This document shows, piece after piece, positions 3,623-22,630 of a DNA stretch of 32,000 nucleotides. Made by a program: the position numbers and the translations under genes. Each line of letters starts with the position of its first letter. Within the stretch, counting starts at the first letter, position 1. The DNA is taken from positions 15,905 through 47,904 of the forward strand of contig CAKUFG010000015.1 of the NCBI GenBank assembly GCA_934647235.1, written 5' to 3'. The DNA is from an uncultured Clostridia bacterium. GTDB taxonomy: Bacteria > Bacillota > Clostridia > Christensenellales > Aristaeellaceae. The notes under the pieces were generated by a model that saw only the letters and a list, made by a program, of their open reading frames with translations, was not told the DNA's origin and did not search any database.

Positions 3623-3714
3623 GGTAAAGCTCCTTTTTGATAGATTGGCGGGGGAATGGGAGGGCAGCTCTTCGTCCGGCTCGCGTTTGAGAGAAGGGTT
3701 TTATGGTCGTGCTG

Positions 3715-3784
3715 TTGGCAAGCGAAGAAGATATGCTGCTGCATTGGCGCAGCCCACGGAAGCCTTCTCCTTGAGGAGAAGGTG
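3715..3784 (+). repeat. beta module, copy 1 of a 70-nt direct repeat
   Basis: TTGGCAAGCGAAGAAGATATGCTGCTGCATTGGCGCAGCCCACGGAAGCCTTCTCCTTGAGGAGAAGGTG. It matches 4218-4287 at 68/70 positions (differences g/a and c/t). A diverged version lies at about 17443-17530. Confidence 0.9.
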
Positions 3785-3802
3785 GACGGCTTTAGCCGCC
3801 CG

Positions 3803-3875
3803 GATGAGGTGTAGTCTGCGAAGCAGCCGTTATCATAACTAAAAGATAACGCCGCTGCGGCGGCTACACCTCATC
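3803..3875. repeat. T hairpin, copy A1 (core in forward orientation)
   Basis: 12-bp inverted repeat GATGAGGTGTAG (3803-3814) / CTACACCTCATC (3864-3875). It encloses a 49-nt core with side hairpins CTGC-gaa-GCAG and GCCGC-tgc-GGCGG and an inner stem GTTATC/GATAAC. Confidence 0.85.
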
Positions 3876-4108
3876 AGTCAGCATTCGCTGACAGCTTCCC
3901 CTCCAAGGGGAAGCCTTTTGGTGGATGCATTTTCCAGCATACGCAAATAGCCGCGTCCCCCTCATCCGTCTCGCTGTTCGCTCGACACCTTCTCCCAAGG
4001 GCGAAGGCTTTTATGTCGTGCGCAGATGTTAGCAAATGCTCTGCAACACTTTCATCAACACACCACACTGAAGGCTTCTCCTCGGGGAGGAGCTCCGCCG
4101 TAGGCGGT

Positions 4109-4155
4109 GATGAGGGGGCTTGTTAGACGGAAATAATGTTGTGTTTCCCCTCATC
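4109..4155. repeat. G hairpin (GATGAGGGGG ... CCCCTCATC)
   Basis: Inverted repeat GATGAGGGGG/CCCCTCATC around a 28-nt loop. On the left it is flanked by CCGCC-gta-GGCGG and a CTTCTCC hairpin, on the right by a gamma module. Related copies lie at 14827-14885 and 17630-17690. Confidence 0.8.
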
Positions 4156-4217
4156 CATCTCGCTTTTCGCTCGACATTTTCTCCCGAGGGCGAAGGCTTT
4201 TATAGTTAGTTATGCGG

Positions 4218-4287
4218 TTGGCAAGCGAAGAAGATATGCTGCTGCATTGGCACAGCCTACGGAAGCCTTCTCCTTGAGGAGAAGGTG
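4218..4287 (+). repeat. beta module, copy 2 of the 70-nt direct repeat
   Basis: 68/70 identical to 3715-3784. Confidence 0.9.
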
Positions 4288-4304
4288 CTGAACGCAGTGA
4301 AGCG

Positions 4305-4380
4305 GATGAGGTGTAGCCGCCGCAGCGGCGTTATTCTTATATTGCTCTGATAACGGCTACTTCGTAGCCTACACCTCATC
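4305..4380. repeat. T hairpin, copy A2 (core inverted relative to A1 and B)
   Basis: Same 12-bp arms (4305-4316 / 4369-4380) and the same beta (left) and gamma (right) flanks as copy A1. The 52-nt core CCGCCGCAGCGGCGTTAT...ATAACGGCTACTTCGTAGC is the reverse complement of the A1/B-type core. Confidence 0.8.
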
Positions 4381-4442
4381 AGTCAGTTCTCGCTGACAGC
4401 TTCTCCTCAAGGAGAAGCCTTTTGGTAAGTGCGTTTTCCAAC

Positions 4443-4720
4443 AATCGCCACGCCTGATTTCCGCGCCCAACCAGCGCTCCGTGGCACGCTGATGCAATCG
4501 GCGCAGGGCGTGCGCAGCACGACCGAAGGGGAAATATTCAAGGGGACGGATGGCGCTTGCGCCGATCCGGGCACGCAGAATTTTCCCTGCCACGGGGGCG
4601 GGGCGGCAGGTGGCCAGGGCCACTCCCAGTTTTATTCAATCGACTTTCACGTCACACATAGGTTCTTTGTTACTTTCTTCACTGAAGAAAGTAACGTATC
4701 CCTCGTCCCCCGTCTCCTAT
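4443..4720 (+). repeat. S element copy A (candidate structured RNA / ssDNA element)
   Basis: Core 4477-4598: outer stem CTCCGTGGCA/TGCCACGGGG encloses three hairpins. These are GCTGAT-gca-ATCGGC, GGCGTGC-gca-GCACGaCC and GGGGAAAtATTC...GAATTTTCCC (inner CGGATgGCGC-tt-GCGCcGATCCG). After the core come a GC hairpin, AGGTTCTTTG, the perfect palindrome GTTACTTTCTTCA-c-TGAAGAAAGTAAC (4669-4695) and a C/T-rich tail. Confidence 0.75.
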
Positions 4721-4730
4721 CCCTCATCAG

Positions 4731-7897: not shown

Positions 7898-7989
7898 GCG
7901 TGGGCTCCTTTCGGGGAGGGGGTGGGGAGAACGGGGGACGAGGGAGGGAACGGTACTTTCTTGGAGCCATAGCGCCGCCGCAGGCGGTG

Positions 7990-8064
7990 GTGAGGTGTAG
8001 GCTGCGAAGTAGCCGTTATCAAAACAATATAAGGATTACGCCGCTGCGGCGGCTACACCTCATC
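7990..8064. repeat. T hairpin, copy B (core forward)
   Basis: GTGAGGTGTAG (7990-8000) / CTACACCTCATC (8053-8064). The core GCTGCGAAGTAGCCGTTATC...ACGCCGCTGCGGCGG closely matches the reverse complement of the 4317-4368 core. Confidence 0.85.
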
Positions 8065-8135
8065 CGGCTCATTACATTCGCCACCTTCTCCTCAAGGAGA
8101 AGGCTTTTGGCGAGTACATTCAACCAGCTATTGCT

Positions 8136-8405
8136 AATCGCTGCGCAGGGGCTTCGCAGCTACTCGACTTGCCCCGGAGCACGCTGATCGCAGATCAGCG
8201 CGGGCGCGCGCAGCACGGCCATAGGGGAAATATTCAAGGGCACGGAGGGCGCTTGCGCCGATCCGGGCACGCGAATTTTCCATGCCCCGCAGAGACCCGC
8301 TTTCCCTCCCACTTTTATCACAGCCGCTTTTACGGCCACAACACAGGTTCTTTGGTACTTTCTTGACTCAAGAAAGTACCGTATTCCTTCGTTTTCTCCC
8401 CGTCC
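8136..8405 (+). repeat. S element copy B (partly degenerate or chimeric)
   Basis: Core 8172-8292: the 5' half is A/D/E-like (GCTGATC-gca-GATCAGC, GGGGAAATATTC...GAATTTTCC). The 3' strand of the outer stem and the extension are C2-like (TGCCCCGCAG, GCCG-cttta-CGGC type hairpin). The outer stem CGGAGCA/TGCCCCG has one mismatch. Palindrome GGTACTTTCTTGA-c-TCAAGAAAGTACC at 8354-8380. The C/T tail abuts the luxS stop. Confidence 0.7.
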
Positions 8406-8873
8406 TTACCCCGGATACTCCGTCCGCGCGTGCTCGGTCAGCTCGCGCAGATAGCGGGCGATGTAGAACTTGGCCATGTCCAGGTTCTGCTCCTGATAGT
8501 TGCCGCATTCCTCGGGGCGCGCGCCGGGGATATCGCCCGAAAAGCCCAGGATGAAACGGCACATGTCGATCACCAGCGGCAGCGCTTCCTGCGCGCTGAC
8601 GTCGCCGAAAAGAATCAGATAAAAGCCTGTGCGGCAGCCCATGGGGCCAAAATAAACAATCCGATCCCTTTGCGCGCCCGAGCGCAGAAAGGTTGCCCCC
8701 AGGTGCTCGATAGTGTGAAGGGCCGGGGTATCCATCACCGGCTCGCGGTTGGGCGCGGTCAGGCGCAGATCAAAGGTGGTTACGCGCCCCTCCCCCTGCC
8801 CGTCGCGGCGCGATACGTATACGCCGGGCAGCAGACGGGTGTGATCAATGGTGAAGCTGGCGATCTTTTCCAT
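8406..8873 (-). CDS. luxS: S-ribosylhomocysteine lyase (AI-2 synthase)
   Basis: 155 aa with the HTIEHL metal-binding motif and GPMGCRTGFY. The ATG lies 1 nt after the stop of the upstream aldolase gene, and its GGAGG RBS is inside that gene's last codons. Confidence 0.92.
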   Translation of the reverse strand: MEKIASFTIDHTRLLPGVYVSRRDGQGEGRVTTFDLRLTAPNREPVMDTPALHTIEHLGATFLRSGAQRDRIVYFGPMGCRTGFYLILFGDVSAQEALPLVIDMCRFILGFSGDIPGARPEECGNYQEQNLDMAKFYIARYLRELTEHARTEYPG

Positions 8874-14711: not shown

Positions 14712-14745
14712 GCGCCGGGAGAAATTCTCCCGGCGCCTTTGTTTT
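14712..14745 (+). terminator. Intrinsic terminator after the SBP gene
   Basis: GCGCCGGGAGAA-a-TTCTCCCGGCGC perfect stem followed by CTTTGTTTT. Confidence 0.8.
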
Positions 14746-14826
14746 GGGTTGCTTCATTCGGGCCCGATTCTGCCTTTTTTACACCGAATGGCCTCTCCTT
14801 GAGGAGCGGCCCCGCCGCAGGCGGTG

Positions 14827-14885
14827 GTGAGGGGGCTTGTTGGCGAAAATGCAAGCCACATCTCATGCTGCATTCTCCCTCATCC
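14827..14885. repeat. G hairpin copy in island C
   Basis: GTGAGGGGGCTTGTT...CCCTCATCC, preceded by CCGCC-gca-GGCGG. The left part GAGGGGGCTTGTT matches 4113-4125. Confidence 0.75.
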
Positions 14886-14952
14886 GTCTCCCTTCTGGGA
14901 GAAGGCTTTTATAGACGTGCGATTTTCAAGAAGCTTAGTCGCCTTATCAAGC

Positions 14953-15113
14953 AATCGCAAGTAGATGCGAATAATAAACGCATCCAACCACGTCCCCGTG
15001 GCACGCCGATGAAACCAGCGCGGACTGGCGAAGCCAGGCCATAGGAAAAATATTCAAGTGGACGGATGGCGCTTGCGCCGATCCGGACACGCAGAATTTT
15101 CCCTGCCACGGGA
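14953..15113 (+). repeat. S element copy C1 (core only, no 3' extension)
   Basis: Core 14994-15112: CCCCGTGGCA/TGCCACGGG outer stem, CTGGC-gaa-GCCAG hairpin, GGAAAAATATTC...GAATTTTCCC, CGGATgGCGC-tt-GCGCcGATCCG. The first hairpin is degenerate. Confidence 0.7.
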
Positions 15114-15165
15114 TAGCATAAAACGCCGACTTGCTATTCGCTCAACACCTTGAAAGCTTTTCACC

Positions 15166-15460
15166 AGTCGCCCAACCGCTGCCTGCGGGGCAGCAGACAG
15201 CGCAGCTGGATGCCAGGGCTGGCGAAGCCAGACCAAGGGGGAAAGCGAAGGGATGACTGGGCGGAGCTTGCTCCAGACCAGGCAGCACAAGCTTTTCCTT
15301 GCCCCGCAGCGACCCGCTTCCCCTCCCTCTTTTATTACAGCCGCTTTTACGGCCACAACACAGGTTCTTTGTTACTTTCTTCACTGAAGAAAGTAACGTT
15401 CTCCCCGTCCCCTCCCCTTCGTCTCCTTTGTCCCCCCGTCCTCCCTGCCTCCCCCATTCA
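15166..15460 (+). repeat. S element copy C2 (second subtype)
   Basis: Core 15183-15309 has the outer stem CTGCGGGGCA/TGCCCCGCAG, compensatory relative to CCGTGGCA/TGCCACGG. Other helices: GGCTGGC-gaa-GCCAGaCC, GGGGGAAAGC...GCTTTTCCTT, CTGGgcGGAGC-tt-GCTCCagaCCAG. Palindrome GTTACTTTCTTCA-c-TGAAGAAAGTAAC at 15371-15397, then a ~60-nt C-run tail. Confidence 0.75.
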
Positions 15461-17367: not shown

Positions 17368-17629
17368 TTCTTAAGCAATGTCCTTTGTACCCTCATCCGT
17401 TTCGCTGCGGCTCGTCCGCCTTCTCCCGCTTGGGAGAAGGCTTTTTTGTTGTGCTTTCGTCGAGTTACGGAATTATGCTGCCGCATTGGCGCAAGCACGA
17501 AATGCCTTCCCTTCGGAGGGGAAGGCTAATATAGCCGTGCACTTATCAACAAGCGGTTCGCGATATCCATATCAGCAAGCTTGCAAATAAGGCTTCCCCT
17601 AGGGGGGAAGCTGGCAGCGTAAGCTGACT

Positions 17630-17690
17630 GATGAGGGGGCCAGTTACGCGAGAATTCAAGTAGAATTGATACGCTGCGTTCCCCCTCATC
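17630..17690. repeat. G hairpin copy in island D
   Basis: GATGAGGGGG (17630-17639) / CCCCCTCATC (17681-17690). Both arms are flanked outward by a small hairpin plus a CTTC/GAAG GC hairpin, giving a cruciform-like ~150-nt palindrome. Confidence 0.8.
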
Positions 17691-17787
17691 CGTCTCGCTA
17701 TACGCTCGACACCTTCTCCCGCTTGGGAGAAGGCTTTTATGGTTGTGCTTTTGTTGAGTTTAGAAAGTACATTGCCGTATTGACGCC

Positions 17788-18150
17788 AATCATCGCGCCT
17801 GATTTCCGCACGCAACCTCGCCCCGTGGCACGCCGATTTTAATCGGCGCAGGGCGTGCGCAGCACGACCGAAGGGGAAATATTCAAGGGGACGGATGGCG
17901 CTTGCGCCGATCCGGACACGCGAATTTTCCCTGCCACGGGGTGGCCAGGGCCACTCCCAGTTTAATTCAATAGACTTTTACGTCATAAACAGGTTCTTTG
18001 TTACTTTCCTTGTACGCCCCGCGCTACTGCCTTACGGCAAGCGCGGGTTTCGGGCGGCAATTTGCAAAATTGCGCGCCCTCAGCCGCCTGCGGCGGCGCT
18101 ATGGCTCCAAGAAAGAATCGTTTCCTCCTCGTCTCCCCATCCCCCATCCG
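17788..18150 (+). repeat. S element copy D (3' palindrome interrupted by ~94 nt)
   Basis: Core 17821-17941 is nearly identical to copy A but has the hairpin GCCGAT-ttta-ATCGGC. The left palindrome arm GTTACTTTC (18000-18008) is separated from a right arm CTCCAAGAAAGAATCG (18105-18120) by hairpin-rich sequence (18009-18102). C-rich tail runs to about 18150. Confidence 0.7.
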
Positions 18151-22301: not shown

Positions 22302-22317
22302 GGAGACGGCTTGTGTT

Positions 22318-22600
22318 TTCGCCAGCTGCTGCGCCTGTTCCCCGCACGCAGCCATCGCCCCCGTGGCACGCTGATCGCAGATCAGCGCAGGGCTGGCGAA
22401 GCCAGACCATAGGGGAAAAAGGCAGAAGCGCGCGGGCGGAGCTTGCTCCAGACCGAGCGATTCAAGTTTTTCCCTGCCACGGGGGGCGGCAGTGCCGCCT
22501 TCCAGTTTTATCAACTTGACTTTTGCGTCACACGCAGCCTTCTTTGATTCTTTCTTGGGCTCCAAGAAAGAATCGTATCTCTCGTTCCCTCCCCTCCCCG
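22318..22600 (+). repeat. S element copy E (island E; sense orientation inside an operon)
   Basis: Core 22358-22486: CCCCCGTGGCA/TGCCACGGGGG, GCTGATC-gca-GATCAGC, GGCTGGC-gaa-GCCAGaCC, GGGGAAAAA...TTTTTCCC, CGGgcGGAGC-tt-GCTCCagaCCG. Then GGCGGCA-g-TGCCGCC, GAC-ttttgc-GTC, the palindrome GATTCTTTCTTGG-gct-CCAAGAAAGAATC (22546-22574) and a C-rich tail. Confidence 0.75.
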
Positions 22601-22630
22601 CAGACAATCAACAAGAAAAGAGGAACCACC

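Follow-up and report, generated by a model that had tools for sequence, protein, structure and literature searches.

We describe a repeated, folded DNA element, here called S, in a stretch of 32,000 nucleotides from an uncultured Clostridia bacterium (GenBank assembly GCA_934647235.1, contig CAKUFG010000015.1, positions 15,905 to 47,904; below, "the window" means this whole stretch). Our analysis indicates that S is probably a unit of about 300 bp of lineage-specific, non-coding, high-copy repeat DNA, of the same kind as miniature inverted-repeat transposable elements (MITEs), REPINs and BIMEs, and that it forms one module of a mosaic system of hairpins rather than an RNA gene. S is confined to one species-level lineage of uncultured human-gut Clostridiales, where it has invaded hundreds of gene spacers.

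A first-pass annotation of this DNA had listed six copies of a closed multi-helix fold, all on the + strand, and all six were recovered at the same places by three approaches. A degenerate pattern taken from the P3a/P1 region of the core matches exactly six sites in the window, each of them on the + strand, whereas chance would give 0. A repeat finder returned the copies as families D1, D4, D5, D8, D10 and D13, and a covariance model placed the cores at 4470-4603, 8165-8298, 14987-15119, 15176-15315, 17814-17947 and 22352-22490. The six copies present a mean column identity of 65% over about 300 nt (MAFFT alignment). The extent of 4443-4720 that had been assigned to the first copy was too small, as the S unit measures about 290-320 nt in all. 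The unit is polar and consists, in this order, of a head, the core, P4, P5, P6 and a C-rich simple-repeat tail. The core itself is a four-way junction in which P1 closes P2a, P2b and a long P3/P3a arm. The copies and their parts are as follows:

4435..4727, + strand: S copy A, full length (nhmmer match 4435-4729; covariance-model match 4470-4603, 137.8 bits; DNA fold of -35.6 kcal/mol, z -4.3)
Parts of copy A, + strand: head 4435-4476; core 4477-4598; P4 4610-4623; P5 4642-4653; P6 4669-4695; C-rich tail 4696-4727
Core helices of copy A, + strand: P1 4477-4486/4588-4597; P2a 4487-4503; P2b 4506-4524; P3/P3a 4528-4587
8127..8405, + strand: S copy B (core 8172-8292 with a degenerate P1; P6 8354-8380; tail 8381-8405; covariance model 123.6 bits)
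14952..15145, + strand: S copy C1, 3'-truncated (core 14994-15112; nhmmer model positions 4-195 only; covariance model 124.9 bits; z -4.9)
15136..15455, + strand: S copy C2 (core 15183-15309; P6 15371-15397; tail 15398-15455; covariance model 115.9 bits)
17779..18150, + strand: S copy D (core 17821-17941; P6 arms 18000-18012 and 18107-18119; tail 18120-18150; z -7.2)
22314..22606, + strand: S copy E (core 22358-22486; P4 22481-22503; P6 22546-22574; tail 22575-22606; covariance model 134.8 bits; z -8.5)

Copy A lies between the stop codon of rhaD (4770) and other repeat modules, and the tail of copy B abuts the stop codon of luxS (8406-8408). Copy C1 is devoid of P4-P6 and of the tail, and copy C2 represents a divergent subfamily with the P1 helix CTGCGGGGCA/TGCCCCGCAG; the DNA fold of C2 reaches -38.1 kcal/mol on the + strand vs -27.9 on the - strand. 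In copy D, a foreign module of about 92 nt (module X, approximately 18013-18104) occupies the center of P6, and the nhmmer match ends at model position 238. Copy E carries a terminator-like P4 followed by a T run, and the ribosome-binding site (RBS) and the ATG (22631) of an FAD oxidoreductase gene are found downstream of it. We aligned 88 copies with their flanks, and the conserved span comprises a terminator-like hairpin GCCTTCTCCTCAAGGAGAAGGCTTTT, a variable head of about 55 nt, the core, P4, CTTTTACGTCAC...GGTTCTTTG, P6, the letters CGT and the C-rich tail. The most invariant block of the element is not the core but GTTCTTTG together with the inner arms of P6, and variability in the alignment is highest in the head. 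The tail spans 20-60 nt of degenerate 7-10-nt units of the form C3-5(T)CGT, and its length varies among strains at one identical site.

We searched for S with the core pattern across genomes, using one genome per species. S was found in essentially a single genome, the metagenome-assembled genome (MAG) "Clostridiales bacterium W1P21.023", in which the pattern matched 21 times, and the other genomes presented only single, chance-like matches. In coding regions, this MAG and the window share 94-97% identity; the MAG also contains an orthologue of copy E (locus L023, 96.5% identity). A scan of metagenomes yielded 117 human-gut stretches with S. In approximately 1 Mb of loci, nhmmer detected about 260 S matches, including 37 in 12 loci of one MAG, and the 32 kb of the window contain six copies. 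The near-full-length matches comprise 127 unique sequences, which were reduced to 67 by clustering at 90% identity, and these present a mean identity of 72%. A total of 58 S matches lie at contig ends, and several assemblies end about 370 nt past luxS (among many metagenome loci, e.g., L036, L037, L052, L055, L100, L104 and L148-L154). The repeat evidently breaks short-read assemblies of this species.

The first-pass annotation had described a closed multi-helix core with compensatory base changes, and this description was borne out. On the six + strand cores, RNAalifold predicts 43 pairs, 13 of which present compensatory changes, in the same architecture as originally drawn. The consensus fold is equally good on the - strand (46 pairs, 16 compensatory). 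A covariance model was then built from the six window cores and used to align 135 cores from related contigs, of which 116 are distinct. Standard pairs fill 96.1% of the pair cells of these 116 cores vs 87.6% in shuffled controls (0 of 500 shuffles reach 96.1%), pairing drops to 37-53% when the 3' partners are slid along, and 23 of the 42 pairs present changes on both sides (360 cells). Given these covariation and pairing statistics on related cores, the fold of S is not a chance feature. Five of the six window cores also fold far better than dinucleotide shuffles (z from -3.7 to -8.5); copy B, whose P1 has decayed, folds no better than its shuffles (z of about -1.0 to -1.3). The further claim that every helix is maintained by paired substitutions holds for P1, P2a, P2b and P3/P3a, and it also holds for P6, a palindrome with 13-bp arms in which four positions covary and hardly any pair is broken. 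It does not extend to P1 of copy B, which is degenerate, to P4, which is variable and forms a hairpin in some copies only, or to P5, a weak 3-bp helix that is broken by an A.C juxtaposition in 26 of the 67 copies.

The helices occur as a few discrete self-complementary variants, which we refer to as alleles. P2a has four of them, P2b two or three, P3/P3a five or six, and P6 five. The alleles are combined in many ways among copies, and the resulting mosaic is visible in the 67-copy alignment. Across P1 and P2a, the sequence TGGCACG-N4-TCGCA (window 4482-4497 and 22363-22378, and likewise further copies whose P2a allele is CGCTGATCGCAG) resembles a sigma-54 -24/-12 element. We rejected this candidate: the other P2a alleles do not preserve the spacing, and the transcript would begin within the fold. 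Since the spacing is present with one P2a allele only, the resemblance is probably a coincidence.

We compared the S-bearing spacers of the window with the same spacers in related lineages. Relatives whose LuxS protein is 78-86% identical keep the gene order hpcH-luxS-araC-rhaA-rhaD-MBL-rhamnosidase, tight and co-directional, without S (L156, L157-L159, L162 and L163). The luxS-araC spacer measures 18-27 nt in these relatives vs 508 nt in the window, and the rhaD-MBL spacer measures 24 nt in one sister lineage (L162) vs 1147 nt in the window. Both of the long spacers consist entirely of repeats, from a G-rich tail after the stop codon through to a C-rich tail before the RBS. Read in the direction of the operon, the G-rich tail of the luxS-araC spacer starts immediately past the luxS stop codon and the C-rich tail ends immediately before the RBS of araC. 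This comparison shows the S blocks to be insertions relative to the sister lineages. In relatives whose LuxS is 88-90% identical, a tail and a P6 are already present after the stop codon.

The S-bearing spacers also vary within the species. Among the 25 spacers that are represented in at least two contigs, a difference of 150 nt or more is seen in 14, and one of 30 nt or more in 20. Two loci present clean allele differences that run from P6 to P6: the short allele is composed of a G-rich tail, one P6 whose arms come from two alleles and a C-rich tail, and the long allele contains two head-to-head S copies and other modules between two P6. In further variants, the sequence stops at the P1 base, or two units are joined by a P2b that they have in common, which generates a new closed junction. 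Truncations affect the 5' side in 33 copies, with another 16 ending in addition at an interrupted P6, and the 3' side in 8, and their breakpoints cluster at model positions of about 75-80 and 155-168, which correspond to helix bases. The S copy downstream of luxS is 78% identical between the window and the MAG, with about 97% identity for the flanking genes, and synteny between the two breaks at repeat-filled spacers (window 14735 and 18241). Overall, the copies turn over fast within the species, helix alleles are reassorted, and the breakpoints lie at P6 and at the bases of helices. Minimal tail-P6-tail forms were considered as the primary insertion and rejected: they represent only 3 of the 202 P6 sites and, being rare and made of hybrid arms, they look like deletion products.

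At one locus of MAG W1P21.023 (L021, 6890-7075), we noticed by eye a SAM-riboswitch-like leader followed by metK, downstream of a gene for an ABC-transporter binding protein. The matching position of the window contains repeats, copies C1 and C2 and a MatE gene.

Gene context was examined at 65 non-orthologous sites; genes were called from codon usage, by a procedure that recovers the window genes supported by Pfam. The tail side of S faces a convergent gene at a median distance of 18 nt (43 of the 65 sites) or a gene start at a median of 70 nt (22 of the 65), and on the head side 300-450 nt separate S from the next gene. Base by base, the tail reaches a stop codon, the distal end of the terminator belonging to the gene, a -35 box or an RBS; in about 25 of the 43 convergent cases it directly follows the stop codon, without any other terminator. 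Adjacent copies separated by up to 600 nt are almost always head-to-head (34 pairs), with one tandem pair (C1-C2 of the window) and no tail-to-tail pair. When a single S is located between co-directional genes, it is antisense to them in 18 cases and sense in 3, and copy E would constitute one further sense case. The terminator-like hairpins of S and of its companion modules are followed by T runs on the + strand only. The genes of the window are all ordinary metabolic and transport genes (the rhamnose operon, luxS, ABC transporters, MatE and others), and those recurring near S elsewhere are housekeeping genes: release factor, UvrA, PrmA, MatE, ABC ATPases and Big_2 surface proteins. No transposase, reverse transcriptase, TnpA/TnpB or integrase gene was seen among the window genes or the recurrent neighbors of S copies. 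Three S-bearing regions (copies A, C1, C2 and E) were scanned together with the sequence just before them, and no sigma-70 promoter was detected; no conserved promoter-like block is obvious in the alignment of S heads.

Which strand and which molecule the fold belongs to can be approached from mismatches and loops. The first-pass annotation had argued for a + strand RNA or single-stranded DNA form from T:G juxtapositions on the + strand. This argument failed: the sporadic mismatches of the 116 cores amount to 33 G.T vs 61 A.C and reveal no wobble preference on the + strand. The exceptions are in P3, with one position where G.T is conserved (105 of 116 cores) and one that alternates between A-T and G.T. 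The conclusion itself is partly upheld by the loops, which are conserved on the + strand, despite a consensus fold that is equally good on the - strand. The mini-hairpin GCGNAGC is found on the + strand in 94 of the 116 cores and on the - strand in 4, with all four nucleotides occurring at N; it is defined as a very stable DNA mini-hairpin motif (PMC13037366). A GCTTGC loop is present in 105 of the 116 cores. Folding energies favor the + strand in all six window copies with DNA parameters; with RNA parameters, they favor it in 4 of the 6 window copies and in 105 of 124 copies overall. In operon contexts, the strand that is mostly transcribed is the complement of +. We consider that the ancestral design of S favors a + strand fold, more likely of DNA than of RNA.

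The S copies share their spacers with other repeat modules, which include GTAG-type palindromes resembling repetitive extragenic palindromic (REP) sequences, terminator-like hairpins such as GCCTTCTCCTCAAGGAGAAGGCTTTT, and GATGAGGGGG/CCCCTCATC pairs. The main features of this kind in the window are the following:

3623..4434, no strand assigned: companion repeat modules that occupy the remainder of the rhaD-MBL spacer (repeat families D2, D3, D6, D7, D9, D11 and D12)
7913..7986, - strand: remains of an inverted partner copy, at the opposite end of the luxS-araC spacer (on the + strand, a G-rich tail at 7913-7951 is followed by a single P6 arm at 7952-7963 and the final part of an X module at 7964-7986)
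3761-3786, 3894-3920, 4264-4287, 4399-4424, 8086-8110, 14887-14912, 17424-17448 and 17707-17735, S strand: copies of the terminator-like hairpin

Blocks similar to 3623-4434 are located at 7987-8126, 14740-14951 and 17380-17778. The REP-like modules are long hairpins with the structure GATGAGGTGTAG, a GC-rich palindrome CCGCCGCAGCGGCG, an AT-rich loop and CTACACCTCATC (window 3805-3880, 4305-4382 and 7990-8065). They carry the GTAG box typical of REP/RAYT systems, are distinct from S, and are gained and lost independently among strains, as in a 290-nt difference between L011 and L034. The repeated terminator-like hairpin (GCCTTCTCC-loop-GGAGAAGGC, followed by TTTT) is always on the S strand, and one copy of it stands about 55 nt upstream of most cores. 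Module X, of about 92 nt, contains three GC-rich hairpins and splits the exact center of P6 in copy D and in loci L006, L048 and L160. Because X occupies the exact center in several unrelated copies, the P6 center appears to be a hot spot of insertion or recombination.

We further analyzed the distribution of P6 outside of S. The palindrome and its asymmetric flank read GTTCTTTG-N1-4-TACTTTCTT-loop-AAGAAAGTA. In viral contigs, the bare palindrome presents 127 matches, 70 of which have the flank TTCTTTG on one side. In a prophage of high GC-content (58-63% G+C; L219, L221 and L232), P6 is found near the outer end of a different repeat unit, which is also arranged head-to-head, and a P22-like portal is encoded near these units. 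AT-rich phage contigs (L164, L166, L173 and others, several of them taken from contigs of 160-230 kb) contain arrays of P6, often several per contig. Their variant, GTTCTCTG...CTCTCTT/AAGAGAG, has GCGAAGC just upstream, and its flank and arms have changed together. Rfam gave no annotation for the P6-like hairpins of the phages, and blastn against GenBank phages found no match for the AT-rich phages or the prophage that carry them. Because P6 and its flank recur in these unrelated phage and prophage repeats, the P6 module is older and broader than the S core, and it is the best candidate for a site recognized by a protein. The GTTCTTT of its flank would fit a SinR-type half-site, GTTCTYT (PMC5733473, PMC3163267), a similarity that we regard only as a lead. 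In the same phage contigs, Rfam models matched an OTKONC RNA about 1.4 kb from the hairpin arrays (L164 2406-2568, L166 14222-14387 and L173 3456-3621), and an RT-2 RNA was matched in L188 (3190-3428).

We propose that S copies spread and are reshuffled at the DNA level, possibly via the extrusion of hairpins from supercoiled or single-stranded DNA. Together with its conserved 5' flank GTTCTTTG, P6 might serve as the site of a trans-acting recombinase or transposase encoded elsewhere, and the mosaics may result from template switching or gene conversion among the many copies. The core helices would persist because the folded + strand DNA, with its GCGNAGC mini-hairpins and GCTTGC loop, is needed for, or tolerated by, this spread. 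The orientation of copies in operons could have been filtered by selection against terminator-like hairpins on the + strand.

Several observations weigh against this interpretation. No such enzyme was found in the contigs and the window, which include no complete genome of the lineage. Among the contigs examined, no empty site was found within the species, and every short allele keeps its tails and P6, so that an ancient invasion followed by recombination may account for S as well as active transposition would. We saw neither a target-site duplication nor a sharp terminus, the comparison of filled and empty sites being made across species only, and the tails vary in both length and sequence, which is odd for the substrate of a transposase. 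Head-to-head partners are 68% identical vs 73% for random copies. Partners that are no more alike than random copies do not form a homogenized terminal inverted repeat, and we also rejected a true foldback arm pair, i.e., a homogenized long inverted repeat, on the same figures. The counts of G.T and A.C mismatches do not suggest that a + strand fold is currently selected for in most copies. Finally, the compensatory changes across the 120-nt span of P1, the conserved G.T pair of P3 and the antisense bias in operons would also fit a role at the RNA level.

A more specific version of this proposal is that P6 and its flank constitute the attachment or binding site of an undescribed, hairpin-dependent system of recombination or transposition common to Clostridia chromosomes and phages, with S cores (folded as single-stranded DNA, with GCGNAGC) and the other modules as cassettes inserted, excised and reshuffled at P6. 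We consider this unlikely, but if true, the P6 system would be a bacterial counterpart of foldback transposons, or of integron-like cassettes, in ordinary intergenic spacers.

Other explanations of S place its function or its spread at the RNA level. It is possible, although we find it doubtful, that S is a cis-acting RNA exapted in the manner of REP and BIME sequences. S would then be part of neighboring mRNAs, mostly as the complement of +, where the G-rich leader, P6 and the core would stabilize or process the upstream message; sense copies would terminate transcription at + strand hairpins with T runs, and the structure would be kept for its role in RNA. Such a role is consistent with the consensus fold being equally good on both strands, with the copies inserted in an operon that is tight in relatives, and with the roughly 25 of 43 convergent tails that directly follow a stop codon without another terminator. 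It also agrees with the excess of antisense over sense copies between co-directional genes (18 vs 3): terminator-like hairpins lie on the + strand only in the regions scanned, which leaves the antisense direction open to read-through. However, selection against intra-operon terminators would explain the orientation bias equally well. Among close strains, the copy at a given site is freely swapped for another allele, truncated or deleted, sister lineages manage without S, a third of the tails face gene starts, and the conserved loop motifs lie on the + strand, opposite to the strand that is mostly transcribed.

The discrete + strand RNA favored by the first-pass annotation, specified here as an independently transcribed structured RNA acting in trans (small RNA or ribozyme) with its start in the head and its end at the P4 hairpin and T run, now seems very improbable. 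The strong covariation of a closed four-way junction is what such a gene would display; a terminator-like hairpin precedes many copies, P4 is followed by TTTTAT in some (e.g., E), and RNA parameters give a somewhat higher stability to the + strand fold in 105 of 124 copies. GCUUGC is also a stable tetraloop context in RNA. However, no promoter-like site was found in the three scanned S regions, the presumed start falls in the most variable part of the element, P4 is not a hairpin in many copies, and the + strand presents no wobble preference. The hundreds of interchangeable copies with high turnover, their antisense bias in operons, their limitation to one species-level lineage with absence from sister lineages, and the lack of any Rfam match, ribozymes included, also argue against an RNA gene. 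We attach an equally small probability to S being a bacterial retroelement akin to short interspersed elements (SINEs), whose RNA would be copied by a target-primed reverse transcriptase, with the simple-repeat 3' tail made during priming. The 3' tail of degenerate 7-10-nt units, variable in length among strains at one site, and the predominance of 5'-truncated copies (33 + 16) over 3'-truncated ones (8) would be expected from this process. The truncation points, however, are clustered at helix bases (about 75-80 and 155-168) instead of being spread, for which reason we rejected this candidate, and internal deletions within head-to-head pairs account for the truncations. The neighborhood of the copies contains no reverse transcriptase, no promoter was found in the three scanned regions and no target-site duplications were seen.

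If S is repeat DNA as we propose, one uncultured gut species harbors hundreds of copies of an uncommonly elaborate repeat, and operon spacers of 18-27 nt have grown to 0.5-1.1 kb. S would then break metagenome assemblies and mark synteny breaks between strains. It would also call for caution in searches for structured RNAs, as very strong covariation in a four-way junction can arise from repeat DNA with reassorted helix variants. The strand-specific GCGNAGC, the tail, which is invariably turned outward from the edge of the spacer toward the gene, and the palindrome shared with phages point to a mechanism based on DNA hairpins, with no enzyme tied to it yet. The main interest of S resides in its unexplained tail-outward rule, its reassorted compensatory helix alleles, its strand-specific mini-hairpins and its phage-shared palindrome.

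We also searched for S among known families. The initial statement that S belongs to no known RNA family stands: a cmscan of the whole window against Rfam 15 returned no match at the gathering score and none at E ≤ 1, and ARAGORN found no tRNA or tmRNA, in agreement with the initial view that the fold is neither. blastn searches against plasmid and GenBank phage records yielded no match to S, and no mobile-element gene was found in the window or among the recurrent neighbors. We therefore rejected the possibility, raised by the first-pass annotation against its own reading, that the copies are the ends of a known insertion sequence, or of a plasmid or phage. S does not fit among elements derived from IS200/IS605 either, which possess sub-terminal hairpins, lack inverted ends and keep a single orientation with respect to replication: hairpins are present, but both orientations are found side by side and no TnpA/TnpB is nearby. 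Integron attC sites, where an imperfect palindrome immediately follows each cassette ORF on its 3' side, always in the same orientation and beside an integrase, do not fit, with housekeeping genes flanking S on both strands, a third of the tails facing gene starts and no integrase seen. A cis-regulatory 5' leader (riboswitch, T-box or attenuator), which would stand in a fixed sense orientation before functionally related genes, is not a good description of an element that lies antisense at the 3' ends of genes in 43 of the 65 sites and whose neighbors are functionally unrelated. Features of intrinsic terminators, namely a G+C-rich hairpin with a T run immediately after it, are present on the + strand in P4 of copy E and in the hairpins upstream of S, but many P4 do not form a hairpin and P6 has no T run.

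Among known systems, S can be compared to the REP-RAYT, REPIN and BIME repeats, which are described as short, non-coding extragenic repeats forming hairpins, present in hundreds of copies, lineage-specific, vertically inherited, arranged as inverted doublets and mosaics, and moved in trans by a single-copy enzyme (PMC3116915, PMC3337134). S is likewise non-coding, extragenic, hairpin-forming, lineage-specific and present in hundreds of copies, with inverted doublets (34 of the 35 adjacent pairs within 600 nt are head-to-head) and mosaics of modules, and REP-like GTAG palindromes adjoin it in the same spacers. A REP is a 20-40-nt imperfect palindrome following GTAG. In contrast, S is about ten times longer, at about 300 nt, and possesses multiple helices in a closed four-way junction, no GTAG box, a palindrome with 13-bp arms and a simple-repeat tail; its head-to-head partners are different alleles (68% identity). 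REP systems include a single-copy RAYT (Y1 HUH) gene with the repeats on its flanks, and no gene for such an enzyme was seen among the recurrent neighbors of S copies.

The MITEs of bacteria (Correia/NEMIS, ERIC, BOX and RUP) are small, non-autonomous, intergenic elements near gene ends or in operons that form stem-loops in RNA or DNA and present insertion polymorphism among strains (PMC3184786). S is similarly small (about 300 nt), non-coding, intergenic and multi-copy, lies close to gene ends or inside operons and folds into long stem-loops. Unlike in MITEs, no terminal inverted repeats are evident in a single S unit, whose variable head and C-rich tail are non-complementary and whose termini are variable simple repeats; head-to-head pairs do provide inverted arms, but these are only 68% identical. 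No target-site duplication is visible in the cross-species comparison, where the boundaries run from stop codon to G-rich tail and from C-rich tail to RBS. No parent insertion sequence sharing the ends of S is found beside any copy or among the plasmid and phage records. The helices of S also differ from MITEs in being discrete compensatory alleles that are reassorted among copies.

Finally, three further groups of elements share some of these properties. The bcr repeats of the Bacillus cereus group, and similar structured repeats, are dispersed sequences of 100-400 bp within one Firmicutes lineage, some with stable predicted folds and compensatory changes, and for them, as for S, either DNA or RNA may be the functional form. 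They have no sequence relation to S, which is distinguished by its tail-outward, head-to-head rule and by P6, and, to our knowledge, the turnover of S is higher than described for bcr elements. The foldback transposons of eukaryotes possess long inverted arms with short degenerate tandem repeats of variable length on the outside, a complex middle and a variable size, and pairs of S are similar. Foldback arms are homogenized within an element, however, whereas the arms of S are independent alleles and each of them also occurs alone. Hairpin signals in single-stranded DNA, such as the promoters of the N4 virion RNA polymerase, the single-strand origins of rolling-circle plasmids and integron attC sites, are present once or a few times per replicon beside defined genes. 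S is found hundreds of times on both strands of the chromosome without a fixed partner gene, but it shares with these signals strand-specific hairpins with GNA triloops, the conservation of GCGNAGC with a varying N and a multi-hairpin fold of 120-300 nt.

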